Positions 5,585 through 45,059 of a DNA stretch of 64,000 nt are shown piece after piece (position 1 is the stretch's first letter; every line of letters starts with the position of its first letter). Source of the DNA: Escherichia phage Andreotti. Under the pieces are notes generated by a model that was not told where the DNA came from, did not search any database, and saw only the letters and a list, made by a program, of their open reading frames with translations. The translations under genes were made by a program, and so were the position numbers. The DNA lies in sequence record MN850610.1; one strand, written 5' to 3'.

Positions 5585-5604
5585 AAGGGGCTTCAAAGCC
5601 CCTT
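5585..5604 (-). promoter_or_regulatory. conserved intercistronic stem-loop AAGGGGCT-N4-AGCCCCTT upstream of the rIIB-like start
   Basis: perfect inverted repeat, no U-run; the same hairpin family recurs at 10359-10374 and 45042-45059. Confidence 0.45.
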
Positions 5605-5614
5605 GTCAAACACT

Positions 5615-7981
5615 TTAATCGTAAATTGTAGTCCCTTCTGGAACACATTTTACATCAAAGCCTAAGAACTTACTCACTTCGATGGGTGACACTTTATTCC
5701 AATCCAAATGAGAAAGCAAGAAGTTTTCTTGTTTTCTTTTTGAAAGGTAGTTTGTCACCTTAATGACCATACGGTCACCAGCTTTCTTAATTTTCTTGTA
5801 AAGCTTTGTATCATTGTCAAGACAGTCTTTCAAAGTTTTCAATACACTAACAGTATAAGTGTATGCAAATGGTGCAGCAACGTATTGGATTTTACCGAAC
5901 ATTGCCTCTACAGCCTCTTCATTACCTTCTAAGAAGATAGTTTTGTTTGTGTCTCGTGAATAGCAATAGCCACGAGAAATCTTCCTGTTATTGAACGTAA
6001 AGTTTCTGGCAATAATCCAACTGCTTGTAAGGTCAAGGACACCATTCATATAGATACGTGTCATATACCTGTTATGATTAATCCAATGAACATCAGTTAA
6101 GCTGTCGTTCAAGAGTTTCTCATCTACTTCAATCCAGTCTTCTGGTATCTTTTTCCAATTTGCTTTTCGGAAAATATAGACTGTCTTCCCTGTAACATTA
6201 GCAACTGACTTGGCTACATCTTCTGGAGATGAGCAAAAACATTCGCCATCAACTGTATCACCAACTGCCTTAATGTAAAGCTGAGGTTCTTCAATTGTAT
6301 CGAAGTCCTCTGAAACCTCTTTATAGGAAGCTACACCTTCTGCTGGAACAGCTTTCCAGAGTTTTACAACACCCCTTACAGCTTCTTTGCGCTGGTAATG
6401 GTGCTCCTTATCAGACATTTTCACAATCTTTAACAAGCTTTTATCAAGTTTGTGTAGATTGATTAGGTCGTCTAACTCTTTTTCAGTCGAGAATACAAAC
6501 ACAATACCATTATATCTGTGAAACAGACTTGACTCACTGGCGTAGTCTCGACATGCACCACGCAGAATCTGATTGCGGCCTACAGTCTTTTCAGTACCGT
6601 TTTTATTGCGACGGTCATTAATCACGAACAAAAACTGTTCAATTTGGCTTTTACGCATTGCACCAAAGATATTGAACATGCTCGCCTCTTGAGTGTAGGA
6701 AAGTGCTGTTGCACGAATCTTACTCTCTAAAGAGTTGAACTTAACATAAGCAACTGGATTGTATAGGTAGTCCACTTTAGGAATGTTGTTTCCTTTACTG
6801 TCAACCTTAATATTACCTTTGCCGTCACGTTCATAGATGACTGAGCCGTCCTCTGCGTAGATAATTCCACGACGAATGTTTAGTAATTCTTCTTCCAGAG
6901 AATCAAGCTTAACACCTCCCCACTCTAGCTTTGGACACACAACATTAAACATCTCTCGTGAGTTCAAGCGTAACTCAGCATAAGCCTGTGCAGCATCCAT
7001 GAGTGTAGGTTGACTATTAACTTTCTTGATAACATCCTTTGTAATTGCTTCAGTTATCTTTTTAGTAGCCTCGATGATAACATTTTTTGTCGTGTCATTC
7101 ATCTGCAATGCTTCACGAGAAGCTGCAATAGCAACTGAACCAATAGGCATGTAGATGTTTACAAGGTCTATGCTCCTGCGGAAAAATTCTGGTAATACTT
7201 TGAAGAAATCATCACCAAGTAATGCCTCCATATTAACTGGGTAGGCAATATTACCCATAACCACGTTAAACTCTGTTCTATTGCTGCTTGAACGCCAGCT
7301 ATGCTTATGAGTCATGGCATCATAGACACCTTCTTCACGAGCAATCACATCCATATCTGCTAATATATCATTATACTCCACATTACTCTCTGGTTTTACA
7401 GCAAAGTATGAGTATACATTACCAGCCTCTTCAAAGAACTTTGAAATACGGTGGTCAGCAACTGCCACACGTACAGCTAAACCATTAGGTTCATTTGTTT
7501 GGTTAGTAGTAAGCTTAGTTACTTGAGGGATACCATTCTCAAGGTAAACAGAGTACTTATTAACAACACCATCAACATAGCTAGATACTGTGAATGACTG
7601 AGCAATTGCAAACGGTGACTTTGAGCCGATACCCATTGCACCAATGTAGTCATTAGAGTCATTCTTCGTAGAAGCCCCGTAGTTCAGATACAAGCTCATT
7701 ACTTTGTCATGGGTTAAACCAGTTCCAAAGTCACGGACTTCAAAGTAAGGCTCAAATCGAGTAGGCAAATGCACATGGAACGGGATGTTTTCTTTTCCAG
7801 CTTCTTTCTGAGCATCTACTGCGTTACATGACAGTTCACGAATCACTGCTCGCTCTTTAAACGTGTATACACCAGAACTCAAAAGGCTGAACATTTCAGG
7901 TGTCATTGTAATTTGTGCTTGAGATGTCTCCAAAGAAGTTGAACTCTTAATCACTTCTGCGTGGTCGTTTACCATGCGCAT
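5615..7981 (-). CDS. rIIA: rIIA-like protein with N-terminal GHKL-type ATPase fold
   Basis: N-terminal motifs RELSCNAVDA (N-box), VRDFGTGL (G1), GAMGIGSKSPF (G2), matching the pattern remembered for T4 rIIA; about 790 aa. Confidence 0.6.
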   Translation of the reverse strand: MRMVNDHAEVIKSSTSLETSQAQITMTPEMFSLLSSGVYTFKERAVIRELSCNAVDAQKEAGKENIPFHVHLPTRFEPYFEVRDFGTGLTHDKVMSLYLNYGASTKNDSNDYIGAMGIGSKSPFAIAQSFTVSSYVDGVVNKYSVYLENGIPQVTKLTTNQTNEPNGLAVRVAVADHRISKFFEEAGNVYSYFAVKPESNVEYNDILADMDVIAREEGVYDAMTHKHSWRSSSNRTEFNVVMGNIAYPVNMEALLGDDFFKVLPEFFRRSIDLVNIYMPIGSVAIAASREALQMNDTTKNVIIEATKKITEAITKDVIKKVNSQPTLMDAAQAYAELRLNSREMFNVVCPKLEWGGVKLDSLEEELLNIRRGIIYAEDGSVIYERDGKGNIKVDSKGNNIPKVDYLYNPVAYVKFNSLESKIRATALSYTQEASMFNIFGAMRKSQIEQFLFVINDRRNKNGTEKTVGRNQILRGACRDYASESSLFHRYNGIVFVFSTEKELDDLINLHKLDKSLLKIVKMSDKEHHYQRKEAVRGVVKLWKAVPAEGVASYKEVSEDFDTIEEPQLYIKAVGDTVDGECFCSSPEDVAKSVANVTGKTVYIFRKANWKKIPEDWIEVDEKLLNDSLTDVHWINHNRYMTRIYMNGVLDLTSSWIIARNFTFNNRKISRGYCYSRDTNKTIFLEGNEEAVEAMFGKIQYVAAPFAYTYTVSVLKTLKDCLDNDTKLYKKIKKAGDRMVIKVTNYLSKRKQENFLLSHLDWNKVSPIEVSKFLGFDVKCVPEGTTIYD

Positions 7982-8009
7982 AATACTTTCCTCTCAGTTT
8001 ACTGTTAAA

Positions 8010-8186
8010 TTACTTATTAAACATTTTACCAGAACCACCACACATAGGGCAACATCCTGCCCTTATGTACCCCTCTCCATTACAGTAGTCACATTTTTTG
8101 TGCTCTGCAAAGTACTTACAAAGGAGGTAAACAAATACTGCTACACTACCAAGTGACAGTAAAATTTCTATCCAATATGCTTGCAT
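8010..8186 (-). CDS. small membrane-anchored protein with DnaJ-type zinc finger (58 aa, not in ORF track)
   Basis: hand-translated MQAYWIEILLSLGSVAVFVYLLCKYFAEHKKCDYCNGEGYIRAGCCPMCGGSGKMFNK; two CxxCxGxG repeats; GAGAGGTGA Shine-Dalgarno upstream. Confidence 0.35.
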   Translation of the reverse strand: MQAYWIEILLSLGSVAVFVYLLCKYFAEHKKCDYCNGEGYIRAGCCPMCGGSGKMFNK

Positions 8187-8503
8187 GACTCACCTCTCAT
8201 ATTTTTGTAAAGGATAAAGCTTCTGTCATGGACAATACTTGTAGACACTGCAAAGTTACTTTCAAGCATCTGTTTGTTTGGATTGTAGAAGCTTTCTTTA
8301 AACTCGTCAAGTGCAAATTGGTGATTGTCTGGAAGACCTTTTACACAGACTTTTATTGTGATTGCTGCTGCAATCTTACCAGTCAGTTCTTCTTTAGCTG
8401 CTACTAAAATTTTGTTAAGGAACTTTTTACCATCTTCAGGTTTCTTAATGTTCTCCCAACGTTCTTCTAGGACAACGTTAATGTTCATTTCTTTGATTTT
8501 CAT
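8168..8503 (-). CDS. hypothetical protein
   Basis: co-directional ORF; no recognisable motif. Confidence 0.5.
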   Translation of the reverse strand: MKIKEMNINVVLEERWENIKKPEDGKKFLNKILVAAKEELTGKIAAAITIKVCVKGLPDNHQFALDEFKESFYNPNKQMLESNFAVSTSIVHDRSFILYKNMRGESCKHIG

Positions 8504-8518
8504 AATCTTCTCCAGAAA

Positions 8519-8543
8519 TTAAAAAGGCTCCCGTAGGAGCCTC
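8519..8543 (-). terminator. intrinsic terminator (ggctcc-cgta-ggagcc plus U-run on minus transcript)
   Basis: A-run then GC hairpin on plus strand, just downstream of gene ending at 8557. Confidence 0.55.
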
Positions 8544-8556
8544 TTATCATATACTT

Positions 8557-10338
8557 TTAAAGCTGCTTGTCAATATTATTTCGAATATCTCCAAGAGTTG
8601 TATAACCGAACTGCTCAGAGTCGCTAAAGACTAAACGTAAAGCACAAGCTTGGTGGTCAAGTACATCTGCAAAACTCTGGAATCCATAGCCATCTACAGC
8701 TTTCAGCTTATCACCATCCCACATAGGTGCTACACCACCAAAGGCAGATTTCTTAACACCACTATCTGTTTTAGGGTCTTTTGCAAGCATAATCTCTTTA
8801 CCACCAATGCTTGCAAGAGTTGCTTTGACAGCAAATGCAAAGGTGTCACGAGTCATGTACTGGTAAGTGTAAGAGCCTACACCAAACACTACGTTAGAGC
8901 TTGCAAAACCCATTTCATACAGACGCTTCAGGATTTCGTTTGCACGTTCCAGCGTGATAGAGTCACCATAGATAAGGCCGATGTGCTCATCCAGTACCTT
9001 AAACCCTTTAGAGTTAATAGTCCCTCCGAAGATGTTGTACAGGGTCTTAATAGCTCCATCAATCTCTGCTACAGGACGTGTTACAACGTTTGCAGAGCCA
9101 ACCATATAAGCATTTTTCAACATCACTGTATCAGCAACTCCAAAGTCTTCTCTGTCAACAACCATTTCGTAGCCTTCTGACAGTAGCCATCCAGCAATAC
9201 CATAGTTGATGTTTTCAAGCTTCATGTTCAGAACAGCATTCAACATTGTGTCACTAGCTTCCAGCTTGCTTAGGTGCTCATAATAAGCCTTCTTAGCACA
9301 CTCTAAGTGGATTGCTTTATAGCCTGTGACAATATGTACAGGGTCTCCAGAGTCAGGGCGAATTACCAGCTTACCATCACGTTCCATAATTTCTTTACGA
9401 AGTGCTGGTAAGATTTCTGACACAGTTCTCCAGAAGTTATAAGTATCTGAAACAATACTTGCAATACCAGTTGGGTAAGTTTCTGTTAAGAAACGACGGA
9501 AGGTTTGCAACTCACCTTTAAAGCGTCTTTCCTCTTCAATCAATTCATTACCACCTTCCCAAGCAATGTTTGCACACATTACAGAGTGTTCAGTGGCTGG
9601 TACAGAACTACCAATATCAGAAATTGGGTAAGACTGTCCATAGATGCGTTTAGCCGTGTATACAGCAGGGAAGCTATCAGTTCCTTTAAAGCTGGTTAAG
9701 TGACCTACAGCATTAAATGCGTCATCGGTAAAGCCGGACATACCACGCATAGCAAAGTCATGGCACTGATAAGGTAAATGTAAGTCATTGTCGCAAGTAA
9801 GGTCAGCCCACTTCTTACAGATACGTTTGTAGTGCAATGCAATAGTTGCAATGGTGCAAGTCTTCCAAATCTCAGCAGAGAAAGCATCTTCCAGATAACC
9901 TGCTACCCAATGGAAACCTGAAACAGTGTTCTGGAAGACAATCATTGGAACACACATAGGAACAACTGTACCTTCTTCTACAGCGTATACTTCAACTGGT
10001 AGATAGCCTAAATCGTGAAGTGCTTCCCAATGCTCTCGACCGATAGCATCTTTACCCAGAACACCATTCATGACTTCTAAGATTTCGTCAACTGCTTCTT
10101 TTTTATCACGTTCAAAGAAAGTGGCGTTCCAGTGGTCTATCAGGTAATCTTTAACGAAACGTTGAATACCAAAAGCTACTACACCATCAATTGCTAAGGG
10201 GCTGTTAAACCATTTGTCACTACGTGGTGTCAGGTTGAACATCAAGTATTCTGTTGCACTAGGGTACTGGTAAACATGACCAGATTTGTAAGCATCTGCG
10301 TTTAAACCTGCTGGTACTGCGTAAAGCGATTTAGTCAT
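8557..10338 (-). CDS. nicotinamide phosphoribosyltransferase-like protein (NAMPT/NadV family, or the related Namat)
   Basis: 593-aa ORF directly downstream of a Prs-like gene; assignment rests on size and gene pairing known from Felix-O1/KVP40-type phages, not on a verified motif. Confidence 0.5.
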   Translation of the reverse strand: MTKSLYAVPAGLNADAYKSGHVYQYPSATEYLMFNLTPRSDKWFNSPLAIDGVVAFGIQRFVKDYLIDHWNATFFERDKKEAVDEILEVMNGVLGKDAIGREHWEALHDLGYLPVEVYAVEEGTVVPMCVPMIVFQNTVSGFHWVAGYLEDAFSAEIWKTCTIATIALHYKRICKKWADLTCDNDLHLPYQCHDFAMRGMSGFTDDAFNAVGHLTSFKGTDSFPAVYTAKRIYGQSYPISDIGSSVPATEHSVMCANIAWEGGNELIEEERRFKGELQTFRRFLTETYPTGIASIVSDTYNFWRTVSEILPALRKEIMERDGKLVIRPDSGDPVHIVTGYKAIHLECAKKAYYEHLSKLEASDTMLNAVLNMKLENINYGIAGWLLSEGYEMVVDREDFGVADTVMLKNAYMVGSANVVTRPVAEIDGAIKTLYNIFGGTINSKGFKVLDEHIGLIYGDSITLERANEILKRLYEMGFASSNVVFGVGSYTYQYMTRDTFAFAVKATLASIGGKEIMLAKDPKTDSGVKKSAFGGVAPMWDGDKLKAVDGYGFQSFADVLDHQACALRLVFSDSEQFGYTTLGDIRNNIDKQL

Positions 10339-10358
10339 CTTTTAATCTCTCTCAAAAT

Positions 10359-10374
10359 GGGGCTTTCAAGCCCC
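10359..10374 (-). promoter_or_regulatory. conserved intercistronic stem-loop GGGGCTT-N2-AAGCCCC between the Prs-like and NAMPT-like genes
   Basis: perfect inverted repeat about 20 nt upstream of the NAMPT-like start codon. Confidence 0.45.
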
Positions 10375-10383
10375 TATAAAGTT

Positions 10384-11265
10384 TCAATCAATGGTTGCTA
10401 CAGTAACTTGGGCGTAATGTGTTAAGCCACGGTCTTTAGCTTCACCTAAAGTGTTTGTAGTGTAGATATGGTCAATACCGTTGTCAAGTAAGTTTTCAAC
10501 ACCTTTAGAGAAAATACCATGAGTTACATAGAGTTCCACACGTTTTGCACCTGCTTCACGTAGGTGTTTAGCTGCCTCTACGAAGGTTCGACCACCATCA
10601 CAGATATCATCAAGAATCATGACAGTTTTATCGGTCAAATCAACATCGTCAAGGATTCGCATACCAGTGATTTCTCCAGTCTTAAGATTGCGCACCTTAG
10701 ACATTGTGATATACGGTTTATCCACCTCTTTAGCGGTATCTTCAGTCTTCTTAGCTGCACCTGCATCTGGGGCTACCAAGAAATCAATGCGTGGGTCACT
10801 TGCAAAGTGTACTGCCACATCTTTTTGCTTCATGCTTTGAAAGCACTTAAATAAGTTTTCTGCAACATTACTGTGAGGGTCAAGAGCACATACTGCATCA
10901 AAACCCATTGCATTAACTAGGTTGGCAAAGACTTTCAGTGCTGCTGCATCACCTTTGAACATGTGGCGGTCATATCGAGCATTTGGTAAGAACCCGAAAA
11001 CAACGGTTTTCATCGCTGATTTCTGGGGAACAAGACTGTCAACGGCATCCTTAGCCAAAGCTAATGCAAACAGTGTATCTTTGTCATATCCCTGTACAGT
11101 AATTATAACATTATCAATCTTACCAGCATTACGCTCAGTAAACTTAACAAAATCTTCAGAGAAGTTTCCACCAATTTCTCCAGATGGGAATTGAATGATA
11201 TTAAATTTTTCTGTGTGGAAGAATTTCTCTTGAGCGGTGACGACGGCTTCAATAACAGTTTTCAT
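10384..11265 (-). CDS. ribose-phosphate pyrophosphokinase-like protein (Prs family; could be ADPR-PP synthetase type)
   Basis: PRPP-binding motif VMILDDICDGGRTF near C-terminus; start moved to ATG at 11265 (MKTVIE), preceded by a purine-rich GAGAGAG stretch. Confidence 0.6.
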   Translation of the reverse strand: MKTVIEAVVTAQEKFFHTEKFNIIQFPSGEIGGNFSEDFVKFTERNAGKIDNVIITVQGYDKDTLFALALAKDAVDSLVPQKSAMKTVVFGFLPNARYDRHMFKGDAAALKVFANLVNAMGFDAVCALDPHSNVAENLFKCFQSMKQKDVAVHFASDPRIDFLVAPDAGAAKKTEDTAKEVDKPYITMSKVRNLKTGEITGMRILDDVDLTDKTVMILDDICDGGRTFVEAAKHLREAGAKRVELYVTHGIFSKGVENLLDNGIDHIYTTNTLGEAKDRGLTHYAQVTVATID

Positions 11266-11276
11266 AGTTTTCTCTC

Positions 11277-11555
11277 TCAATCAAAAGTTACGTTTGTTAC
11301 TGCCATTGCAGATTTGCATTTTGCAGGGTCTACAACGTGATAAAGTACACTACAGTTACCTGTGCTGTCTGGTACAGGCTTTACCCATTGCTGCTTTATA
11401 TTTGGCTCCCCTAAGTCTTTGTAAGAGCCATCTGTAAAGTTGTTTACCATCTCAAGTGCAATTGGTTCTGGAACATGCCCACGTATCATGTACATTTCAC
11501 AACCATTACCGCCTTCACTGACTAATGGTAAAATCTCCCACTTCTCTTTAGCCAT
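11277..11555 (-). CDS. hypothetical protein
   Basis: co-directional ORF. Confidence 0.45.
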   Translation of the reverse strand: MAKEKWEILPLVSEGGNGCEMYMIRGHVPEPIALEMVNNFTDGSYKDLGEPNIKQQWVKPVPDSTGNCSVLYHVVDPAKCKSAMAVTNVTFD

Positions 11556-12063
11556 TGTAAGTTGCCCTATAAACTGTCTCGAACTTCAACAGGAGAGATA
11601 TTGCCAAATCTGTATAGTTGTTGTCAAGCACATCTGGCATATTATTTTTGATATATTTCTCTTGCTCTTCATAGGTCATCTTAGTTGTGCTTAGAAGGTT
11701 ATCTCCCTGCTTCTGGTTATCAAGTTTAGTCTGGATAAACCAGTTTGCACAGTGATGCTCACCACCCTTTGTAACAGGTTTGTGGTGGCCTAATGTGAAG
11801 GATTGACTACCTGTGTATCTACAAAGCTTATTGAGCACTGCAATGGTGTTCTTCACAACAAAACATTCATACAGGTTATCTATAGTGTAGTGTGGGTAAT
11901 AACGGAATAGTACTCTTTCACGAGTACTTTCACGATTCCAGAGAATCATGTGATTGGAGTTTGAGGGGTCGTATTGGTGGGAGTCAATGAACTCTTGACG
12001 TTCCTCAAAGCTAAGTCTTAACACTGACATTGCAGCAGAACGTTTTAGGTTTGACAGATACAT
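11548..12063 (-). CDS. hypothetical protein
   Basis: co-directional ORF. Confidence 0.5.
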   Translation of the reverse strand: MYLSNLKRSAAMSVLRLSFEERQEFIDSHQYDPSNSNHMILWNRESTRERVLFRYYPHYTIDNLYECFVVKNTIAVLNKLCRYTGSQSFTLGHHKPVTKGGEHHCANWFIQTKLDNQKQGDNLLSTTKMTYEEQEKYIKNNMPDVLDNNYTDLAISLLLKFETVYRATYNG

Positions 12064-12074
12064 ATCATCTCCAA

Positions 12075-12103
12075 AATAAAAAGGGAACTGTAAAGGTTCC
12101 CTT
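12075..12103 (-). terminator. intrinsic terminator (agggaac-loop-gttccct plus U-run on minus transcript)
   Basis: A-run then hairpin on plus strand, downstream of gene ending 12115. Confidence 0.5.
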
Positions 12104-12114
12104 ATAGTATCTGT

Positions 12115-12435
12115 TTACTGAGCTACTTTCAAGATGCTTGTGAATGAAATCTCACTCTCATCCATAAACTCTTTTGCTTCTCCAGTAACTTTTACAAAGT
12201 TATCTAGGCAGATAATCTTCTTATCTTTCTTGCTATAGGTTAGCTTGACCTTTTCAATATCTTTCTTAGAGTTTTTCTCTTCATTAAAGAGCTTCACAGC
12301 TTCTTTAAATGGTAGGTATGAACCATCATCATCGCTAATAAAACCTGTGCCGCAATAGTAGAAGTTATATTCTTTAGCCATAAACTGGCACAGTACGAAA
12401 ATCTGTAATTTGCGAGTGTTATATACTTTGCTCAT
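12115..12435 (-). CDS. hypothetical protein
   Basis: co-directional ORF. Confidence 0.5.
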   Translation of the reverse strand: MSKVYNTRKLQIFVLCQFMAKEYNFYYCGTGFISDDDGSYLPFKEAVKLFNEEKNSKKDIEKVKLTYSKKDKKIICLDNFVKVTGEAKEFMDESEISFTSILKVAQ

Positions 12436-12437
12436 GA

Positions 12438-12704
12438 TTATTTAACCTTCTTATTACGTTTACGGTTACGAGCTTTCTTAGCTGCTCGTTTAATAGCTGC
12501 TGCACCAGACTGGTGGTGAGCTTGTTTCTTACCACCTTTACCACGTCCTACGTAGATGTAAGGCTGCTGTTCAATTTGGCTTGTAAGAACCTGTGCAACC
12601 GCTGAAGCATCTACACCGACCTGCTTTCCAGTCATAGAAATGATTGCTGCTGCTTTTGCCAGTGCCTTCAAGAAGCCAGCCTTCATATTACCTAAAATTC
12701 CCAT
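12438..12704 (-). CDS. small protein with poly-basic C-terminal tail (nucleic-acid binding?)
   Basis: C-terminus KRAAKKARNRKRNKKVK. Confidence 0.45.
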   Translation of the reverse strand: MGILGNMKAGFLKALAKAAAIISMTGKQVGVDASAVAQVLTSQIEQQPYIYVGRGKGGKKQAHHQSGAAAIKRAAKKARNRKRNKKVK

Positions 12705-12719
12705 TTTTAGTCTCTCTCA

Positions 12720-13076
12720 TTAAAGTTTAATACAGAACTTATGGAGTTCTTCTTCAGTGATACCGATTGGAGTTACACCTTCTCTGATGTTTTGAATCCT
12801 GTAGAAGTCTCCAAATTTATCTGACTCGTGTATGGCAAAGGTGACATTCTTTACAATCGTTGCAAGAGCACATAATGAATGTGCACCAAATTTTTCTCTT
12901 GTATAAATAATCCAGGCATCTAACTTGTTGATGTCATAAGTCCACTTGCCAGAATAATCATTCTGCTCGCCATTGACAATCGCCTTGCCATCCATACTCT
13001 TTTCTCCAGAGGTTTTGGTTATCAGAACCACGATATGGTTTAACTGTTGGTTTAGACGAATCATACTTACCATCAA
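12720..13076 (-). CDS. hypothetical protein; true start probably downstream of the track start
   Basis: track start is TTG and overlaps the nrdG 3' end by about 119 nt. Confidence 0.3.
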   Translation of the reverse strand: MMVSMIRLNQQLNHIVVLITKTSGEKSMDGKAIVNGEQNDYSGKWTYDINKLDAWIIYTREKFGAHSLCALATIVKNVTFAIHESDKFGDFYRIQNIREGVTPIGITEEELHKFCIKL

Positions 13077-13443
13077 TCACCACGTCAACATATTTCATTA
13101 CATCTAAGTGGATTTTTTCGTGCAGTTGAAAACCTGTCCAAAGCCATATAGACTTTTCTGGATAAACAGTTTTAATACGCTTGCATATGTTGGTGACCTC
13201 TTGAATGTTTCTGTCATCCAGAGGCTCCCCACCAAGTATTGACAGCCCACTGATAGCATTATCATCCATTAACTTAATGATGCCGTAGAGGTTTGCATAG
13301 GTAAACTCTTTACCAGCATTAAACTTCCAAGACTCCCTGTTAAAGCAGCCTTCACAGTGATGCTTACAACCAGCTACGAAGAGGCTTACACGAACCCCTT
13401 CACCATTAGCTGTGTCAAATGGTCTAATCTCCATGTAATTCAT
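12958..13443 (-). CDS. nrdG: anaerobic ribonucleotide reductase activating protein (radical SAM)
   Basis: CKHHCEGC (CxxxCxxC) radical-SAM motif near N-terminus, about 160 aa, RGSDNQ near C-terminus. Confidence 0.7.
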   Translation of the reverse strand: MNYMEIRPFDTANGEGVRVSLFVAGCKHHCEGCFNRESWKFNAGKEFTYANLYGIIKLMDDNAISGLSILGGEPLDDRNIQEVTNICKRIKTVYPEKSIWLWTGFQLHEKIHLDVMKYVDVVIDGKYDSSKPTVKPYRGSDNQNLWRKEYGWQGDCQWRAE

Positions 13444-13502
13444 CTAGTTACCTCACCAATAAATATAAATGTTCTTTAAACCTTTTCTTCGAATTGTTTT
13501 AC

Positions 13503-13898
13503 TCATTCAAACACCACCTCACAAGGAACCTGTTTAGTAATAAACTCTTCACAGTGTTCTTTAATAAAGTTTTGTAATGGAACACAGTCTTGCGCGCAAG
13601 TCATTAGCATAATGTACTCTGGATTCATGATGTTTTCAAGGGTGTAGAAGACAACATCATTAGATAATTCATGACCATCTTCTTCAGACCAAGTTCCAGT
13701 GACTACAGCTAATTTATCAAGTAACTCATTAGGCAACGCTACACCGTCTTCTACGGAGTCGCTTAGAACATTGTCGCTGATGTACAATGTGAAGACTGTA
13801 TGGAATGTTGAGTATTTTACGTGATTCTTTTCGCAAGAGCCACACTCTGAGGCGTAGTCTTTAACCCACTCTAACTGTTTTTGGTTCAACTTAATCAT
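13503..13898 (-). CDS. hypothetical protein
   Basis: co-directional ORF. Confidence 0.45.
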   Translation of the reverse strand: MIKLNQKQLEWVKDYASECGSCEKNHVKYSTFHTVFTLYISDNVLSDSVEDGVALPNELLDKLAVVTGTWSEEDGHELSNDVVFYTLENIMNPEYIMLMTCAQDCVPLQNFIKEHCEEFITKQVPCEVVFE

Positions 13899-14095
13899 AA
13901 TTTCACCCTAGTTGGTAATGCACTGAATGCTATAGCTAACCCTAAAAATGGTTTGAAGCATGACCATAAATCCATTTGTCCGTGATATGATAATCTCCAT
14001 TGTGGGTCTGAAAAACCCCATACCATAACACTAACCCCAAAGAAGAAGATTAGAATGTGGAGTATGTATATCAACGTTTTTGATATTTTAAACAT
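13895..14095 (-). CDS. small membrane protein
   Basis: hydrophobic segment ILHILIFFFGVSVMVWGF. Confidence 0.4.
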   Translation of the reverse strand: MFKISKTLIYILHILIFFFGVSVMVWGFSDPQWRLSYHGQMDLWSCFKPFLGLAIAFSALPTRVKL

Positions 14096-14199
14096 TTTAA
14101 CTTATCTCTCAATTCACAATAAGAAAGTCCTAAAAAGAATCCTAGTAAGACAGAACCTATGAACAAACCGATAATACTCTCTGCCATGTCTGACATCCA

Positions 14200-14238
14200 A
14201 TAAAAAGGTGATGTAAGCCTATCAAGACCCACATCACC
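14200..14238 (-). terminator. intrinsic terminator after nrdD (8-bp stem ggtgatgt/acatcacc, large loop, U-run)
   Basis: inverted repeat plus A5 on plus strand immediately downstream of nrdD stop at 14249. Confidence 0.45.
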
Positions 14239-14248
14239 TTGTCAAGTT

Positions 14249-15115
14249 TTACATAGAAATCCTGTCACGAATCTCAGCGATTTTTGCATCATTCATTCGG
14301 GATTCACCTTTAATCTTAGTCCATCCCAGATATCCGCACACCCTGTTAATCACAGAGATGTCATGTGAATGGCAAACCTCACATTCTTCAACATCAGCCT
14401 TTGGTCTGTTACCACAATGTTCACAGATTGCTAAGTCAAAGTTAAGTCCCTGATAGAAACCTTTCAACATACCTCTTGTAATACAACTTTTAAGTGCTGG
14501 TAAGTTTTCTGGGTTAGCTACCCTTACATACTGGATTCTGCCACCTCTACAGATATGGAAGAATGGCTCTTCTAAGTCCTGCTTCTCAAATGGTGAGATG
14601 TTTGCTGCAACATTCATATGGAAACTGTTTGTAAAGTATTCCTTGTCAGAAACGCCTTTAATAACACCAAACATATCTCTGAACTGTTTTAGCTGAGTTC
14701 CACACAATGACTCTGCTGGAGTGCCATATACTGCATACAGGAAGCCATCTTCATTCTTAAACTCTTCAGTTTTCATGTTAATGTATGCCAGAACATCGTA
14801 TGCAAAACTAGAACTTCCAACTTCATGAAGTCGTTTACCTTCAGCAAGAACAGATAACTCATCAAGAGCAGTAACCCCAAAAGAAGCTGTGAAGGATTTC
14901 ACAATATCCCAACCAACCTTGTCAGTAGGCTTCTTAGTCCCTTTATACAGACCACCTTGTGTGAATGCAAGAGGGTTAGAACTTGCTGGCATATTGGCAA
15001 TCATTTCGTAACGTTTCTTATGGAAGCTGCGAATCATTTCTAGGTACTTATCAAGCTCTTTCCAGAAATCTAAACCATTCTCTTTAGAATACTGGTAAAT
15101 CATTGGTAAGTTCAA
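14249..15115 (-). CDS. nrdD: anaerobic ribonucleoside-triphosphate reductase, C-terminal part (exon 2)
   Basis: glycyl-radical motif RVCGYLG and Zn ribbon CEHCG...CEVC at C-terminus; exon boundary not determined, track start is only the first Met. Confidence 0.7.
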   Translation of the reverse strand: MNLPMIYQYSKENGLDFWKELDKYLEMIRSFHKKRYEMIANMPASSNPLAFTQGGLYKGTKKPTDKVGWDIVKSFTASFGVTALDELSVLAEGKRLHEVGSSSFAYDVLAYINMKTEEFKNEDGFLYAVYGTPAESLCGTQLKQFRDMFGVIKGVSDKEYFTNSFHMNVAANISPFEKQDLEEPFFHICRGGRIQYVRVANPENLPALKSCITRGMLKGFYQGLNFDLAICEHCGNRPKADVEECEVCHSHDISVINRVCGYLGWTKIKGESRMNDAKIAEIRDRISM

Positions 15116-15935
15116 AGATACAGCACCAATGTTAGCACGACCTACATAAAACTCTTCACCATCTTCGTTATGGTATGGTGATAAAAACGCTCTACACTTG
15201 TTGTTCAGGTAAGTTCGCTACGCTTACCCCGCTTTATTCAAGCTGCTTACTGTCACCAGTAAGTCCAGACTATATCTTCTACTTATTTCTAAGTAGCGTA
15301 CCATTTCGAGTCGCTTGACCCTACACCGCTACATTCATCACGGTTAGTCGTTTGGCATTTAGATGTATTCAAATTCATGTTCAAAGTTATTATGTTCTTT
15401 TACACCCTTCAGTATTGAAGAGATAGTCTTGCGATTATACCCAAGTATCTTGGATAACTCTCGTATCGAGTTCGCAACAATAACTTCTTTTGTTACTTTG
15501 TGTGTAGCCTTCACAGCATATGAACGCTTACAAAACTTGTAGCAACCATTCTCATAACCTTCTTTAACATTCTCAGAATGAGTTCCCCATTCTAAGTTAG
15601 AAGCATGGTTATTCAGTTTGTTATCATCTTTGTGTTTTACAATTGGAAGATTGTTCGGGTTAGGTACATATTTCTCAGCAACTAACCTATGAACATACAT
15701 GTCACGATTCTTCTTACCGTAAAACCTCACTTTCATATACCCAGTGTTGGATTTCCACTGCTTAAGTTCTACACCATTTTTCCTAAAGACTCTTCCGTCT
15801 TCAGTAACATGATAATTTGGCATGTAATACTCCTATGTTGTATAGTTTCTTACATCGTACATCATTTAGCACAGGATTGTCTACATCTGTAGAGTTTCCC
15901 TGTTTAGGCACGTTTTAGATGAGCTATAGAGCCTG
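15116..15935 (-). mobile_element. intervening sequence splitting nrdD, probably a self-splicing (group I-like) intron carrying an HNH homing endonuclease; boundaries approximate
   Basis: nrdD reading frame broken by stop at 15936 and resumed downstream; insertion contains a free-standing HNH ORF plus non-coding flanks; T4-type phages carry introns in nrdD. Confidence 0.45.
15359..15823 (-). CDS. HNH homing endonuclease (intron-encoded)
   Basis: HNH motif HKDDNKLNNHASNLEWGTHSEN; C-terminal helix-turn-helix-like region. Confidence 0.6.
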   Translation of the reverse strand: MPNYHVTEDGRVFRKNGVELKQWKSNTGYMKVRFYGKKNRDMYVHRLVAEKYVPNPNNLPIVKHKDDNKLNNHASNLEWGTHSENVKEGYENGCYKFCKRSYAVKATHKVTKEVIVANSIRELSKILGYNRKTISSILKGVKEHNNFEHEFEYI

Positions 15936-17135
15936 TTAACCCATCGGTGAAATAACCTTGCCAGAACGCTCAAAAGCTTCTGCTACAGCACCATGACCAG
16001 ATACACTTAAGAAATCTGGATACATTGCTTTAGAGCAACACTCAATAGCTTTACTGTACAGGTGTCCTTGACAGATATTCTCATCGTGTCTCTTCTGGTC
16101 ATAAATATAAACCAGTTTAGGGAATACAACAGGCTTCTTGCTCTTACCTTGTCCATTCATACGAACATCTAGGAGAGTACTTGCAATCATGTATTGCAGT
16201 CGGTTATCTTCATTGGACATATCTGAGTCAAGTAACCCGAATGTCAAAGTTGTAAATGCAAAATCCCCACGGCTACAAGGCACAGTGTTTAGCTTCATTT
16301 CAAGTGACTGGAAACCTTGAGTCAGTTCAATCTGTAGCTGCTCCATGACATAGTTGTGGTAATGTTCTTTAGGAATACCATAAGCTGTTGCTTTTTCAGC
16401 ATGGTAACGTAGAGACTTCTTAGCATACGGTACAAGTACCTTATCAATCTCTGCTAAAGTAAAGCCACCAAATTGCTGTGCAGTTGCTGAAAGAACTACA
16501 TCACCAATAACCTGTAAGGCTGATAGTACAGACTTTGGTTCACAATATTCAATGCCAGACATTTCAAAGCCACCTTTCAGGACTTTACCAATGTCAAACA
16601 GACAACAGTTGATACCACCAAAAATTAGGTCTCTTAAGTCATGGATATAAATAAACCCTTTTTCAATGGCTTCAAGTTCCTCTGGTGTTAAGTGGTACTG
16701 TTTAAAGATTTCTTTAGTCAGGTAACCACGAATAATTGAACCTTTTGTAGAAATTAAACTGCTGTCAAAATTAGCGTTTTCTCGGTCACCTAAGAAGAGT
16801 GTATCCTTAGTCTTCTGGTAAAGTTCATCCCAATTTTGAGCAACTTCTTTACGGTAATTTCTATATGTTGAGTAAGACTCATAAATCTCGTGATTGACTT
16901 CTGCCAAAGCACCCTCAACAATACTGTGAATATCATTTACTGAAATTAGCAAATTATTCTGTTTAGTAGATTTTACCAGAATCCTCATAAATGCTGACTC
17001 AAGAGCTTGAGTAACATCTGGTGGAAGCTCTTTATAACCAACTCTGTTAGCTGACTTTGTGACTGCTACTAAAACTTTTTTGATATCAGGTTCTTCAAGT
17101 GAGCCATTCTTTTTAATAATCTGTACTTTGTTCAT
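15936..17135 (-). CDS. nrdD: anaerobic ribonucleoside-triphosphate reductase, N-terminal part (exon 1)
   Basis: about 400 aa upstream partner of the glycyl-radical C-terminal part, adjacent to nrdG; terminates at an in-frame stop before the insertion. Confidence 0.6.
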   Translation of the reverse strand: MNKVQIIKKNGSLEEPDIKKVLVAVTKSANRVGYKELPPDVTQALESAFMRILVKSTKQNNLLISVNDIHSIVEGALAEVNHEIYESYSTYRNYRKEVAQNWDELYQKTKDTLFLGDRENANFDSSLISTKGSIIRGYLTKEIFKQYHLTPEELEAIEKGFIYIHDLRDLIFGGINCCLFDIGKVLKGGFEMSGIEYCEPKSVLSALQVIGDVVLSATAQQFGGFTLAEIDKVLVPYAKKSLRYHAEKATAYGIPKEHYHNYVMEQLQIELTQGFQSLEMKLNTVPCSRGDFAFTTLTFGLLDSDMSNEDNRLQYMIASTLLDVRMNGQGKSKKPVVFPKLVYIYDQKRHDENICQGHLYSKAIECCSKAMYPDFLSVSGHGAVAEAFERSGKVISPMG

Positions 17136-17154
17136 TATTGCCCCTTTACATGTT

Positions 17155-17176
17155 AAAAAGGTCTCCGAAGAGACCC
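17155..17176 (-). terminator. intrinsic terminator (ggtctc-cgaa-gagacc plus U-run)
   Basis: A5 then hairpin on plus strand between genes ending 17184 and starting 17135. Confidence 0.5.
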
Positions 17177-17183
17177 TTTCATT

Positions 17184-17390
17184 TTAAATCTTTTTAGAAA
17201 ACTTCGCAAAGAGTTCTCTTAGTTTTTCAGTGATACCTAACTGTATCTCTAATATTTCGAAGATAACCCATAGTAACATGGCTCCAAACAATGAACCTTG
17301 TTCAAAGTCAGTAAATAGGTTAACAATAAGCATACCAATCACAATAGCTGGTGCATCAACAACCAAACCTTCCCAAATGCGTTTAAGCAT
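17184..17390 (-). CDS. small membrane protein
   Basis: hydrophobic segments VVDAPAIVIGMLIVNLF and LFGAMLLWVIFEIL. Confidence 0.4.
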   Translation of the reverse strand: MLKRIWEGLVVDAPAIVIGMLIVNLFTDFEQGSLFGAMLLWVIFEILEIQLGITEKLRELFAKFSKKI

Positions 17391-17625
17391 TATTCACCTC
17401 TGCCATAAAATTCTGTAGCGTCCCAACAGGTTTTAGGTTTTGTCCATCAGTTTTCATGATGAATGGCATCTGACGAACTGGCATCTGTGCAATATCCATC
17501 AGGTCTGATAGCTCATAGTCCTGTCCTAACATTCTCACAACATGGTCAATACCACGAGCTTTTGCAAAATTCTTTGCAGTCTCACACTGAGGGCATCCAG
17601 TTTTGGAGTAAATTATATAAGTCAT
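17383..17625 (-). CDS. glutaredoxin-like redoxin (RNR electron donor)
   Basis: CPQC active-site motif near N-terminus, 80 aa, directly downstream of nrdB. Confidence 0.6.
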   Translation of the reverse strand: MTYIIYSKTGCPQCETAKNFAKARGIDHVVRMLGQDYELSDLMDIAQMPVRQMPFIMKTDGQNLKPVGTLQNFMAEVNNA

Positions 17626-18698
17626 TAAGGAACCTCTAAAAATCCACTATTCAAATCATCTACAACAGTATTCAACAGGTACGCACCGTTCTGTTGCTCC
17701 TGATTAGCATTCTGCTCTTTATCAATTTCCATCTTCTTAATCATGTACTTCAAAGGTGGTTCTTTGGGAGCTACAAAATCTCTTGGAATGCCAAACATAT
17801 CATACAGTGGGGCAGCATTATAGTAAACCCACTCATGAAGAAGCTTTGTATTTAAGCCAACTACAGCACGTCCTTCGGAGAAGATATAATACGACCATTT
17901 CTCTTCACTTTCAACTACTTCATCTAAGATTACTTTAATCTCTGGAAGAATCTGTTGAAAAGCTTTCTGCCACTCATCATCTCTTAAAGTTTCTTTTAAA
18001 ACTTCAATATCAATTTTAGTGTGAAGGATTTCGTCAAGCATAATTTTCTGTACCGCTTGAGCAATACCCTGAAATTTATCTTGAGCATCAAGTGCAAAAG
18101 TACATGCAAAGGATGCCATAAAAGATATACCTTCCAGTGCAGTCACTGCAAACAGACCTTTCAGAATCACTTTATGGAAGTGTAAAGGGTCTTTGTCCAG
18201 AAGTGAATCACGGACATAACTCAGTCGGTAGTTTATCCCTTCATCCAGTAATTCTTCAAGAACACGATTCACAGTTTTTAATCGGTCTTGCACAGCAACA
18301 TTCTGGTTAATCTCATCTAAGATTGTTTCAGGGTTTTTAATACATTGTCTTACAATCTCTGAGTAAGTAAGAGCATGTAGGTTTTCAATCTCAGACTGCT
18401 TCATAATTGCAGTTGCATAAATGTCATCAGAGATAAAAGGTGCAAAGGCAAATGCCAAGCTCTTAGCAACTTGAGTGTCTGCTTCCCATTGCCACTTAAG
18501 AATCTCAAGCATTACACCTGACATTGATGCTGGGACACTCTCAAAATCAAGACGTGATTGTTCAAAAGGGAACTCATCTTCTGACCAGTCTTGTGCTTTT
18601 TGTTGTTTATAAAGTTCAAAGATTTTTGGGTAGTGCTTATTGAGTGAGTCAAAAGTTTTTCTCTCACCACCTAAAAAGATTGGGTGCTGGTTAATCAT
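17625..18698 (-). CDS. nrdB: ribonucleotide reductase small subunit (class I R2)
   Basis: ferritin-like motif LFAVTALEGISFMASF; start moved to ATG at 18698 (MINQHPIF) because the track start is TTG and overlaps the upstream ORF. Confidence 0.7.
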   Translation of the reverse strand: MINQHPIFLGGERKTFDSLNKHYPKIFELYKQQKAQDWSEDEFPFEQSRLDFESVPASMSGVMLEILKWQWEADTQVAKSLAFAFAPFISDDIYATAIMKQSEIENLHALTYSEIVRQCIKNPETILDEINQNVAVQDRLKTVNRVLEELLDEGINYRLSYVRDSLLDKDPLHFHKVILKGLFAVTALEGISFMASFACTFALDAQDKFQGIAQAVQKIMLDEILHTKIDIEVLKETLRDDEWQKAFQQILPEIKVILDEVVESEEKWSYYIFSEGRAVVGLNTKLLHEWVYYNAAPLYDMFGIPRDFVAPKEPPLKYMIKKMEIDKEQNANQEQQNGAYLLNTVVDDLNSGFLEVP

Positions 18699-19036
18699 AG
18701 CGTGATTTCTCCTTTCTTTATCATTTCTAAGGCTTGTTTTCTGTCTAAAACTTCCCAATTTTCTTTGTTAAACATCTCATAAGGTCTTGCGTAGATTTTA
18801 CCATCTGCTATAGAGATGTAAGAGATACCAGCAACCCATGAGTCATCCTTTTGTTTTATCATCATATCTGTGCTACTCACATAGTACATCGTTTTCCGAG
18901 GCTTGTGGAGCAAGTATATAGGCCGCTCATGTTTTTCTATTAAATCTTTCATGGTCTCTCCAAAGTTATTTTTAGAGGGTCTTTTACGACCCTCATAATT
19001 GTTAAAACTAAACACCACAACCCTCGCAATAAGCAT
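18695..19036 (-). CDS. hypothetical protein between nrdA and nrdB; real start probably the internal ATG near 18952 (MKDLIEK)
   Basis: track ORF overlaps nrdA 3' end; internal ATG has GGAGAG Shine-Dalgarno. Confidence 0.35.
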   Translation of the reverse strand: MLIARVVVFSFNNYEGRKRPSKNNFGETMKDLIEKHERPIYLLHKPRKTMYYVSSTDMMIKQKDDSWVAGISYISIADGKIYARPYEMFNKENWEVLDRKQALEMIKKGEITL

Positions 19037-25864: not shown

Positions 25865-25936
25865 TATTTAAACCTCTATCTCAATTTATGAAGAGTACCA
25901 ATTCTAGTTTGTTGATACTCTATTGTCAAATACTAA

Positions 25937-33512: not shown

Positions 33513-34024
33513 TGAGAGATTGTGGATTCACACATGAACAGTTAAAGTCTTGGTTAGATTATGACCCCGAAACAGGGGTCTTAACATGGATTGGCAGACC
33601 CCCACATAGTAGTAGGGTGGTTATTGGAAGCCAAGCCGGAGCAATTAAGCGCACAAGGTCTGGTGTGTATATGCACACACAGATTTTAGGATACAGGACA
33701 GGTAATCACCGAATTGCTTGGTTCTGGATGACAGGTAAGTGGCCTGATAAACACATTGACCACAAAGATGGAGATGGTTTGAATAACGCTTGGGACAATC
33801 TAAGAGAGGCCACAAAAGAACAGAATATGTCTAATAGGAGACAACCTAGAACATCAAAAAACTTAAAAGGTACAAGTAGAAGCAAGTCTGGTAAGTGGAT
33901 AGCCCAGATTAACCATAATGGCAAGACTATACATATAGGAACATACACAACAGAAGAAGAAGCCCATAAAGCTTACTGTGAAGCTGCTGTGAAACTCCAC
34001 GGAGAGTTTGCAAAACTATCTTGA
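33512..34024 (+). CDS. HNH homing endonuclease (AP2-like C-terminal domain), free-standing downstream of the polymerase gene
   Basis: HNH region HIDHKDGDGLNNAWDNLREATKEQN; start overlaps polymerase stop. Confidence 0.6.
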   Translation: MRDCGFTHEQLKSWLDYDPETGVLTWIGRPPHSSRVVIGSQAGAIKRTRSGVYMHTQILGYRTGNHRIAWFWMTGKWPDKHIDHKDGDGLNNAWDNLREATKEQNMSNRRQPRTSKNLKGTSRSKSGKWIAQINHNGKTIHIGTYTTEEEAHKAYCEAAVKLHGEFAKLS

Positions 34025-36403: not shown

Positions 36404-36562
36404 ATGTTCAGTACAGTCATTCTGTTTATACTGGTTGTCTTTGTATTGTCATACGTTGCAAGTAAGCTTTTGGACACATCTTTTGCAATGGGTGTCTTGT
36501 TTACAATCTTTTGTTTCGTGACACATATAGCTATCAGAACTTTTTTTATAAAAAGTTGTTGA
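36404..36562 (+). CDS. small hydrophobic membrane protein (52 aa, not in ORF track)
   Basis: hand-translated MFSTVILFILVVFVLSYVASKLLDTSFAMGVLFTIFCFVTHIAIRTFFIKSC. Confidence 0.3.
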   Translation: MFSTVILFILVVFVLSYVASKLLDTSFAMGVLFTIFCFVTHIAIRTFFIKSC

Positions 36563-36586
36563 CATAGAAAATTTGGTGAGTATACT
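36559..36586 (+). promoter_or_regulatory. sigma70-like promoter TTGACA-N16-TATACT directly upstream of the first repeat array
   Basis: TTGACA at 36559-36564, TATACT at 36581-36586. Confidence 0.45.
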
Positions 36587-36619
36587 GAGCAGCATAAACC
36601 AACGGGTACTCACCAACAT

Positions 36620-36926
36620 CACTTAAGAGTCTTTGAAAAGGGTTTTTTAAGTGATGTGGGGCGAGGCTCGGTGAGGTGGGGTAAGGCATAGTGCGGTGCT
36701 GTTTGGTATGGGTAGTTAGTCTCAGCTACATTAAAATGAGACTTACCTTTTTAAAAGGTCTTTAAACAGGGTCTTTTAATAAGGTTGTGTGATGTGATGT
36801 ATGGTGCTGTGGAGTTTGGTTAGGTCCGGTCAGGTATGGTATGGTGATGTGAGGTATGGGTGGATGGTAGTAGCCACGTTAAAAATCTACCAAGTTTCTA
36901 AAGAGTCTTCTGTTGAGGGTTCTTTA
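36620..36926 (+). repeat. repeat array A: two full modules (hairpin-1, G/T-rich pentamer tract, hairpin-2) plus a terminal hairpin-1 copy
   Basis: hp1 36620-36653 and 36745-36785; GT tracts about 36654-36715 and 36786-36865; hp2 36718-36743 (then T5) and 36866-36891; hp1 variant 36899-36926. Confidence 0.75.
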
Positions 36927-37998: not shown

Positions 37999-38011
37999 GT
38001 TGACTAGGTAG

Positions 38012-38034
38012 CCTCTTCGGAGGCTCCTTTTTAA
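38012..38034 (+). terminator. intrinsic terminator (agcctc-ttcg-gaggct plus T5)
   Basis: GC hairpin with T-run 14 nt after cassette gene 2 stop. Confidence 0.55.
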
Positions 38035-38420
38035 AAGGTCTTTAAACAGGGTCTTTTAATAAGGTATTGTTCGGTGTTGTATGGTAGGGTCTGGTCCGGC
38101 AGGGTCTGGTTCGGTCCGGTAGGGTCTGGTATGGGTAGTTAATCGGAGCTACATAAAAATTCGATTACATCACTTAAGAGTCTTTTAAGAGGGTTTTTAA
38201 GTGAGGTGTGGCACGGTAATGCTAGGTAGGGTCAGGTCAGGTCAGGTGAGGTAAGGTGTGGGTAGTTAGTCTCAGCTACATTAAAATGAGACTTACCTTT
38301 TTAAAAGGTCTTTAAGAGGGTCTTTTAATAAGGTATTGTATGGTGTAGTTTGGTTAGGTATGGTTGGGTGTGGTAAGGTAGGGTATGGAAGGATGGCAGT
38401 AGCCTTATAAAAAATCTGCC
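38028..38420 (+). repeat. repeat array B: three modules (hairpin-1, G/T-rich pentamer tract, hairpin-2)
   Basis: hp1 38028-38067, 38173-38205, 38297-38336; GT tracts 38068-38140, 38206-38267, 38337-38394; hp2 38142-38169, 38270-38295 (then T5), 38395-38420. Confidence 0.75.
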
Positions 38421-38439
38421 AAATAAGCTATAAAATCTG

Positions 38440-38474
38440 TTGACAAGTCAGGTGTTATAGCTTATTTTTATACT
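38440..38474 (+). promoter_or_regulatory. possible promoter (TTGACA with weak -10 TATTTT at 17 nt, TATACT further on)
   Basis: TTGACA 38440-38445; imperfect spacing to the better -10. Confidence 0.25.
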
Positions 38475-38512
38475 CAATGTAATACAAAATTTAATATAAC
38501 TTTGAGGTCATT

Positions 38513-39763: not shown

Positions 39764-39776
39764 TAGGTGATTAACT

Positions 39777-41095: not shown

Positions 41096-41096
41096 T

Positions 41097-41996: not shown

Positions 41997-42000
41997 AAAC

Positions 42001-42028: not shown

Positions 42029-42034
42029 AAAATT

Positions 42035-42600: not shown

Positions 42601-42679
42601 TTAATCACCTCATCAGCCAAGATGGTGAGAATACCCATAAAGAATATTAACACCATCTTAACAATCAGTCAACAAGGGA

Positions 42680-45022: not shown

Positions 45023-45041
45023 TATAAATTTTCCTCTTAAA

Positions 45042-45059
45042 AGGGGCTATACAGCCCCT
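45042..45059 (-). promoter_or_regulatory. conserved intercistronic stem-loop AGGGGCT-N4-AGCCCCT between the two tail-fibre genes
   Basis: perfect inverted repeat about 20 nt upstream of the 42680-45022 start codon. Confidence 0.45.

Follow-up and report, generated by a model that had tools for sequence, protein, structure and literature searches.

Why does one short GC-rich hairpin recur, almost letter for letter, between unrelated pairs of phage genes? The question is raised by a stretch of 64,000 nucleotides (nt) from Escherichia phage Andreotti (MN850610.1), here called the window, in which a GGGGCT...AGCCCC stem-loop lies at three intercistronic sites. An original prediction, made from the sequence alone, had seen in it a shared RNA processing or translational control element, for example an RNase III-type site or a stabilising 5' hairpin. 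The answer that we favour, with a probability of about 0.6, is that the three hairpins belong, as stem-loop modules, to composite promoter/stem-loop cassettes that form a family in Felix O1-like phages and resemble the promoter-early stem-loops (PeSLs) of T4-type phages, and that the hairpins would act as attenuators or 3'-end hairpins. By sequence identity the window is assigned to Felixounavirus (Ounavirinae; the Felix O1-like myoviruses of E. coli and Salmonella): approximately 170 Felixounavirus genomes match the 6.9-kb stretch around the first two sites at 94-97% identity, phage LinBro being the best match at 96.7%, and the tail-fibre region is 98.9% identical to that of phage humlepung.

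A scan of the window for GGGGCT-N(2-8)-AGCCCC returned exactly three matches (5587-5602, 10359-10374 and 45043-45058). Shuffled windows held 0.01 matches on average and none of 100 shuffles reached three. All three matches are intergenic and lie between co-directional genes of the minus strand, none of them within coding sequence, an arrangement with a chance of about 2e-4 given that some 6% of the window is intergenic by rough gene calls. According to the annotation of relatives, the flanking genes are rIIA and rIIB at site 1, prsA (ribose-phosphate pyrophosphokinase) and NAMPT at site 2, and two tail-fibre genes at site 3.

5585..5604, minus strand: site 1 hairpin, AAGGGGCT-TTGA-AGCCCCTT (as mRNA, AAGGGGCU-UUGA-AGCCCCUU), with an 8-bp stem and a 4-nt loop.
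10359..10374, minus strand: site 2 hairpin, GGGGCT-TGAA-AGCCCC (as mRNA, GGGGCU-UGAA-AGCCCC), with the tail AUUUUGAG.
45042..45059, minus strand: site 3 hairpin, AGGGGCT-GTAT-AGCCCCT (as mRNA, AGGGGCU-GUAU-AGCCCCU), with a 7-bp stem and the tail UUUAAGAGG.

The three elements share a fixed position relative to the gene before them. The rIIA stop TAA (5617-5615) precedes the site 1 hairpin by 10 nt, the prsA stop TGA (10386-10384) precedes that of site 2 by 9 nt and the upstream tail-fibre stop TAA (45071-45069) precedes that of site 3 by 9 nt, whereas the Shine-Dalgarno sequence and start codon follow at differing distances: the rIIB ATG (5535) 49 nt, the NAMPT ATG (10338) 20 nt and the downstream tail-fibre ATG (45022) 19 nt after the hairpin. 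Because the distance to the stop codon is nearly constant (9-12 nt) and that to the ATG is not (19-49 nt), the hairpin is anchored to the upstream gene and not to the downstream gene.

Much of the original description of these sites held up. The hairpins are nearly identical and sit about 20-50 nt before the next start codon. The 7-8 bp given for the stem is correct for sites 1 and 3; the stem of site 2 is 6 bp long and its next position is an A/A mismatch. For sites 1, 2 and 3 in turn, the tails immediately past the stem read UUAAAAUG, AUUUUGAG and UUUUAAGA. None of the three sites has a canonical U-run, taken as at least five T in the eight bases past the stem, and by that measure the hairpins do lack one; the description was overstated for sites 2 and 3, where four U fall inside 5 nt past the stem (AUUUU and UUUU, against UU at site 1). 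The distinction from canonical terminators was also correct, as the approximately 12 such terminators in the window carry UUUUU(C/A/U)AUUU tails. A terminator scan of positions 1-20000, which hold sites 1 and 2, called neither of them. With flanks included, the predicted folding energies of the three hairpins (-11.5 to -15.9 kcal/mol) are close to those of the canonical terminators (-14 to -16.6 kcal/mol). At gathering score, Rfam 15 had no match anywhere in the window. A further U-less hairpin, GAGGGUC-GUAAAA-GACCCUC followed by UAAAAAUAAC, lies in a post-stop gap at 18975-18994 on the minus strand (-13.8 kcal/mol, z = -6.1); it is an element of the same class with a different stem.

The stem is strongly conserved. 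For each site about 30 relatives were fetched from IMG/VR, with rIIB, NAMPT and the upstream tail-fibre protein as anchors. Sequences with an unaltered GGGGCT/AGCCCC number 28 of 30 at site 1 (29 relatives and the window), 21 of the 23 hairpin-bearing ones at site 2 and 25 of 30 at site 3, where the other five read GGGGGCT/AGCCCUC and stay paired by means of a G·U on the sense strand. None of the four loop positions is fixed, with up to four bases per column. In a more distant contig (3300045988_028620, rIIB 59% identical) the orthologous gaps of sites 1 and 3 hold hairpins of different sequence, AAGUGGUC/GGCCACUU at site 1 and, at site 3, a 15-bp stem with a U5 tail that forms a canonical terminator after TTGACA. 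Judged from this comparison, structure persists at larger distance and sequence does not.

The 4-nt loops (5589-5600, 10361-10372, 45045-45056 and their orthologues) show a peculiarity of their own: among close relatives they occur as reverse-complement pairs, TTGA/TCAA at site 1, TGAA/TTCA and TAAA/TTTA at site 2, and ATCA/TGAT, TTAT/ATAA and TGAA/TTCA at site 3, some of them flanked by identical sequence. There are six such pairs against roughly 0.4-1.5 expected by a rough hand estimate, which suggests that the sequence enclosed by the arms has repeatedly undergone small inversions ('flip-flop').

A promoter-like sequence at site 1 has the hairpin for its spacer.

5580..5609, minus strand: predicted sigma70-type promoter for rIIB, with -35 TTGACA (5609-5604), an 18-nt spacer and -10 TAAAAT (5585-5580), scoring 11/12.

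The window contains seven promoter-like sites with a score of at least 11/12, where first-order Markov simulations give 2.1 +/- 1.4, and each of the seven lies on the coding strand of its region. Relatives, Felix O1 included, have TTGACA-(A)GGGGCT-N4-AGCCCCT-TA(G/A)AAT with a spacer of 17 or 18 nt, and the promoter is invariant down to 76% rIIB identity even as the stretch from the -10 to the Shine-Dalgarno sequence diverges. A scan of IMG/VR for the composite matched only Ounavirinae orthologues, and in the 60 GenBank records listed this site bears no annotation of a regulatory feature. The predicted rIIB start site (about 5573-5576) lies downstream of the hairpin; on this prediction only RNA that comes from rIIA contains the hairpin, and a role at the 5' end of the downstream transcript is impossible. 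In reverse transcription PCR of Felix O1, rIIB peaks at 10 min, rIIA at 25 min and both tail-fibre genes at 60 min (PMC3185647). These data are semi-quantitative, and their rIIB/rIIA timing fits a separate rIIB promoter.

The short copies belong to a larger family. The whole genome of humlepung, a close relative, was assembled and proved to contain the three short-loop copies, a fourth at the right end and, just past the window's left edge, five copies of a long-loop form, TTTACA-GGGGCTTA-N13-TAAGCCCC. This form stands between unrelated small genes in 5-10 copies in relatives and is likewise anchored to the upstream stop codon. Its full layout in humlepung is TAA-AGTAC-TTTACA-GGGGGCTTA-N13-TAAGCCCC-AGATAAAGAG...Shine-Dalgarno-ATG, and for relatives it can be written TTTACA-GGGG(C/T)TTA-N13-TAAGCCCC-AGATAAAGAG. 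The five humlepung copies are 88-100% identical over 75-100 nt, with flanks at random identity, and a Moogle-like contig has ten copies in 6 kb. In Felix O1 long-loop cassettes precede ORF16, ORF17 and ORF20, of which ORF16 and ORF20 are in the 5-min early class (PMC3185647). All 17 distinct long-loop cores have TAnnnT exactly 17 nt from TTTACA (TATCTT, TAAGAT, TAAAGT, TAGTAT, TATGAT) with differing bases in between, good evidence for a promoter with its -10 in the loop. Its fold is an interrupted helix of about 19-20 bp.

Pairing in the long-loop cores is biased toward one strand. A sense-strand U·G wobble (GGGGUU...AGCCCC) is found in nine of the 17 cores and a sense-strand C·A in none, and the Felix O1-type variants of site 3 also carry a sense G·U. 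Since the wobbles are confined to the sense strand, they argue for an RNA hairpin of the mRNA strand and against a duplex-DNA protein site.

Cassette copies also mark breaks in homology. Between humlepung and Felix O1 the homology blocks end exactly at them, and two copies of a second cassette type stand on either side of a 1.15-kb indel of three genes. This second type reads TTGAC(T/A)-N17-TAAWWT; a 5'-proximal hairpin, GGGGAGG-GAATGA-CCTTCCCC, comes next and then a conserved leader, ACTAAATAAARTCCTAAACTGGAGA. It lies between small early genes at 79.1-84.8 kb of humlepung (MN850564) and 8400-12400 of the Felix O1 sequence, just beyond the left end of the window.

Sites 2 and 3 have the same upstream module as these cassettes and lack the -10. 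The flanks read TAA-AGTGT-TTGACA-A-GGGGCT (site 1), TGA-AAC-TTTATA-GGGGCT (site 2) and TAA-TTTC-TTTACA-GGGGCT (site 3), so that stop-N-TT(T/G)A(C/T)A-GGGGCT is common to all three. Seventeen nt past the -35-like hexamer stand TTTTGA at site 2 and TTTAAG at site 3, neither of which has the essential A2 and T6 of a -10.

45059..45064, minus strand: -35-like TTTACA adjoining the left arm of the site 3 hairpin; CTTTACAGGGG matches the long-loop 5' module exactly, and no usable -10 follows (TTTAAG).

In distant relatives a site 3 promoter was considered at the TATAAA or TAGAAA that comes after the hairpin; this sequence overlaps the Shine-Dalgarno sequence, the transcript would lack a ribosome-binding site, and we treat it as a relic. 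The site 3 hairpin was also considered as a recombination joint of the tail-fibre genes, and rejected: identity profiles and fine alignment place the mosaic boundary in the upstream gene, about 50 nt inside it.

The gap of site 2 is not always occupied by a hairpin. LinBro and six IMG/VR relatives carry an HNH endonuclease gene there, which takes the place of everything from the stop codon of prsA, hairpin and all, up to the Shine-Dalgarno sequence of NAMPT; the NAMPT ribosome-binding site itself is kept. The hairpin is therefore dispensable for NAMPT expression. The free-standing homing-endonuclease gene is inserted exactly in the prsA/NAMPT gap (10339-10383 of the window), and the first NAMPT codons of the carriers differ, which looks like co-conversion.

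The closest known parallel is the PeSL, described in the T4-type phages RB49/phi1, T4/PST and KVP40/nt-1 (PMC2839356; PMC4122927). In RB49/phi1 the upstream stop codon is followed by an AT-rich tract and a consensus sigma70 promoter with its stem-loop, and then by a Shine-Dalgarno sequence and an ATG (PMC2839356); the stem-loops, built from a G-tract and a C-tract, lie mostly between the -35 and -10 or over the -10 (Arbiol 2010, PMC2839356). PeSLs are repeated between ORFans and bound indels (PMC2839356), and degraded 'half' PeSLs consist of a -35 and a stem-loop with no -10 (Comeau 2014, PMC4122927). Among the RB49 PeSLs that we read directly are TAA-AAAGTTG-TTGACA-GGGGATC..GATCCCC-TATAAT and TAAAGTTGTTGACAGGGGATCGGTGATCCCCTATAATG.

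The likeness to site 1 is feature for feature, TTGACA-GGGGATCGGTGATCCCC-TATAAT in RB49 corresponding to the TTGACA-stem-loop-TA(G/A)AAT composite, with a G-tract/C-tract stem-loop that fills the spacer; the long-loop copies in turn enclose the -10. Long-loop copies resemble PeSLs further in being numerous and conserved over about 100 nt between unrelated ORFans, whereas the window holds three short copies only, and sites 2 (TTTATA...TTTTGA) and 3 (TTTACA...TTTAAG) match the description of half PeSLs and nothing more. Indels bounded by cassette copies are seen outside the window; within it only site 2 meets an indel, that of the HNH gene. There are also differences. The phages here are Ounavirinae and not T4-like Straboviridae, most copies combine a -35 TTTACA with a weak -10 (TAnnnT), and those in the window sit in core blocks (rII, NAD salvage, tail fibres) rather than in hyperplastic ORFan regions. 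PeSLs are further defined by proven activity as promoters and as terminators or attenuators and by mini-circle formation, activities that the cassettes described here may share. A literature search found no paper on PeSL-like elements in Ounavirinae. The element is real, non-random and conserved and is best placed with the known PeSL-like elements, as a newly described case in Ounavirinae; the site 3 copy had already been annotated as a terminator in the type phage.

A plausible mechanism can be drawn up from this parallel. On the mRNA arriving from the upstream gene, the GGGGCU...AGCCCC hairpin would fold about 10 nt past the stop codon and would partially terminate (attenuate) transcription, form a 3'-exonuclease-resistant end of the upstream message, or both, thereby setting the ratio of upstream to downstream expression. 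Site 1 would be a complete cassette, whose embedded host-type promoter would start transcription anew for rIIB some 25 nt farther downstream. Sites 2 and 3 would be half cassettes, with NAMPT and the distal tail-fibre gene dependent on read-through; since these genes are without their own promoter, termination there must be partial, that is, leaky. The late, 60-min peak of both tail-fibre genes fits read-through at site 3. For attenuation the sole experimental support is by analogy, namely that a U-less PeSL stem-loop cut downstream lacZ about as much as rrnB T1 did (Arbiol 2010, PMC2839356). Attenuation and stabilisation are indistinguishable here; the hairpins resemble the R-sites of T7 and 3'-stabilising hairpins in lying between co-transcribed genes and being left at the 3' end of the upstream message. 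T7 R-sites are interrupted helices of about 20 bp, whereas the stems in the window are 6-8 bp long and only the long-loop copies outside it approach 20 bp.

Several observations weigh against this scheme. Across the approximately 30 relatives per site, none of the six core stem pairs shows a double compensatory change, and stem invariance alone is no proof of pairing, as sequence-specific recognition would fit it too. The site 1 variant of two contigs has a C·A mismatch on the sense strand. Site 2 is degraded in two relatives in addition to its deletion in the HNH carriers and may therefore be only weakly selected. As the U-tracts comprise just 2-4 U and are unconserved, classical intrinsic termination should be weak; distant site 3 orthologues end in UAGAAAG or UAUAAAG, with the U-run lost and the hairpin kept. 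Apart from the HNH indel at site 2, the copies in the window bear no sign of PeSL-style shuffling. Finally, a literature search found no transcript-end mapping for any Felixounavirus.

It is possible that the three hairpins are ordinary weak intrinsic terminators, alike by convergence only and belonging to no cassette family with a promoter link, and we consider this unlikely. The GC-rich stem a few nt after a stop codon and the stability comparable to that of canonical terminators in the same genome are what an intrinsic terminator would show, and sites 2 and 3 have their four U just past the stem. TransTerm called the Felix O1 orthologue of site 3, 'gggggctgtacagccctcttt', as the rho-independent terminator t76 (Whichard et al. 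2010, PMC3185647, Table 2), whereas sites 1 and 2 are not in that published table. Similar stems are reused by other terminators of the window (for example AGGCTCC/GGAGCCT), and RB49 also has GGGGGCG-TTAA-GCCCCC-UUUU hairpins without promoters. Convergence on a stem does not, however, account for a shared sequence that reaches past the stem at three of three sites, nor for the identity of this extended module to the long-loop 5' module; long-loop copies that separate unrelated genes are 88-100% identical to one another. Past the stem of site 1 stand only UU and, in place of a U-run, a conserved -10, and at site 3 it is the U-run, not the hairpin, that distant relatives have lost.

The invariance of the stem across about 30 phages and three sites, unaccompanied by covariation, would also suit an element acting as DNA, either an operator for a dimeric DNA-binding protein of phage or host, for which the GGGGCT-N4-AGCCCC palindrome offers half-site centres 10 bp apart, or a target of recombination or homing. 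The position between the -35 and -10 at site 1 is a classical one for repression, site 2 coincides with the HNH homing-endonuclease insertion point, and loop inversion implies that the arms interact as DNA. This alternative is nonetheless very improbable. The half-site spacing is not fixed (4 nt in short copies versus 17 nt in long-loop copies), the sense-strand-only U·G variants in nine of 17 cores are unexpected for a duplex-DNA site, other promoters of the window have unrelated stem-loops in the same positions, and the orthologous hairpins of the distant relative differ in sequence.

The original idea of one shared, recurrent element at the RNA level is well supported by recurrence, conservation and the sense-strand wobble bias, and it is the functions proposed for it that are not supported. 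E. coli RNase III substrates typically comprise about two helical turns, or about 20 bp, of double-stranded RNA, which may be interrupted. That the hairpins control the processing or translation of the downstream gene, whether as a cleavage site of RNase III or RNase E, by stabilising the 5' end after cleavage or as the nucleus of a fold hiding the Shine-Dalgarno sequence, is very unlikely: the long-loop cassettes' interrupted helix is in the RNase III size range, but the stems in the window are 6-8 bp and that of site 3 reaches about 12-13 bp even with an outer helix, the elements keep their distance to the upstream stop and not to the ATG, the site 1 hairpin is upstream of the predicted start of its embedded promoter, and site 2 is dispensable. 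On these grounds of stem length, position relative to the promoter and dispensability, we rejected an RNase III site or a 5' stabiliser for the copies in the window. Of translational control a trace remains, in the outer helix UUCUUU/AAGAGG that RNAalifold predicts weakly over the Shine-Dalgarno sequence of site 3, with two or three partly compensated pairs. This helix is mostly U-A/U·G pairing of a T-rich tract with a purine-rich Shine-Dalgarno sequence, which arises trivially; it shows little covariation and was not found at site 1, and a conserved occluding helix was not adopted.

Stem-loops unrelated to GGGGCT are associated with other promoters of the window.

25892..25929, minus strand: promoter-embedded stem-loop with an unrelated stem, TTGACA-N17-TAGAAT, whose arms AGAGTATCAA and TTGGTACTCT enclose the spacer and the -10.
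8522..8573, minus strand: composite promoter/terminator junction after NAMPT, in which a promoter-like TTGACA-N16-TATGAT abuts a canonical terminator, AGAGGCTCC-TACG-GGAGCCTTTTT.
36559-36640, plus strand: near-consensus sigma70 promoter with an inverted repeat, the arms of which overlap the -10.

Promoter-embedded stem-loops thus look like a general habit of this genome, beyond the GGGGCT stem. An identical 18-nt palindrome, GACCCCGAAACAGGGGTC, at 23864-23881 (minus strand) and 33563-33580 (plus strand) was tried as an RNA element and rejected: it encodes a conserved DPETGV near the N-terminus of two paralogous homing-endonuclease genes, and the repeat is a coding coincidence. Two large non-coding stretches on the plus strand, 36563-36800 and 37999-38512, contain complex direct and inverted repeats with GGT-rich runs, and they repeat TTAAGAGTCTTT..AAGGGTTTTTTAAGTG and ACCTTTTTAAAAGGTCTTTAA palindromes (predicted folding -142 kcal/mol over 514 nt); these stretches may be a replication origin or a regulatory region. 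A motif TTTTTCATTT(Y)ARAAYTGTGCAG(G)TA directly follows several terminators, at 204-289 and 4326-4425 of the minus strand and at 78642-79164 of humlepung, and the gap at the window's left edge has four copies of it.

A bolder proposal, which we put forward tentatively and which is rather less probable than not, is that Felix O1-like phages possess a working mobile cassette system of the PeSL type, whether of independent origin or acquired horizontally from T4-type coliphages, in which the arms would insulate transcription units without a U-tract and would also act as points of recombination or template switching. If this were true, the loop inversions, the cassette-bounded indels and the HNH entry site would mark such points, and the system would drive the shuffling of modules in another myovirus lineage, unrelated to the first.

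Typing, biocontrol and therapy make wide use of Felix O1-like phages, which essentially lack a transcription map; the Felix O1 genome paper left unexplained what sets the timing and by what means transcription gets past the many terminators. Recognition of the cassettes predicts boundaries of transcription units, for example an rIIB start near 5573-5576, accounts for the differing published timing of rIIB and rIIA, and flags likely recombination joints for engineering or for tracing mosaicism. The finding extends a known concept rather than introducing a new mechanism, and it suggests that U-less G4/C4 hairpins within sigma70 promoters are a general design of coliphages and not a peculiarity of the T4 group.

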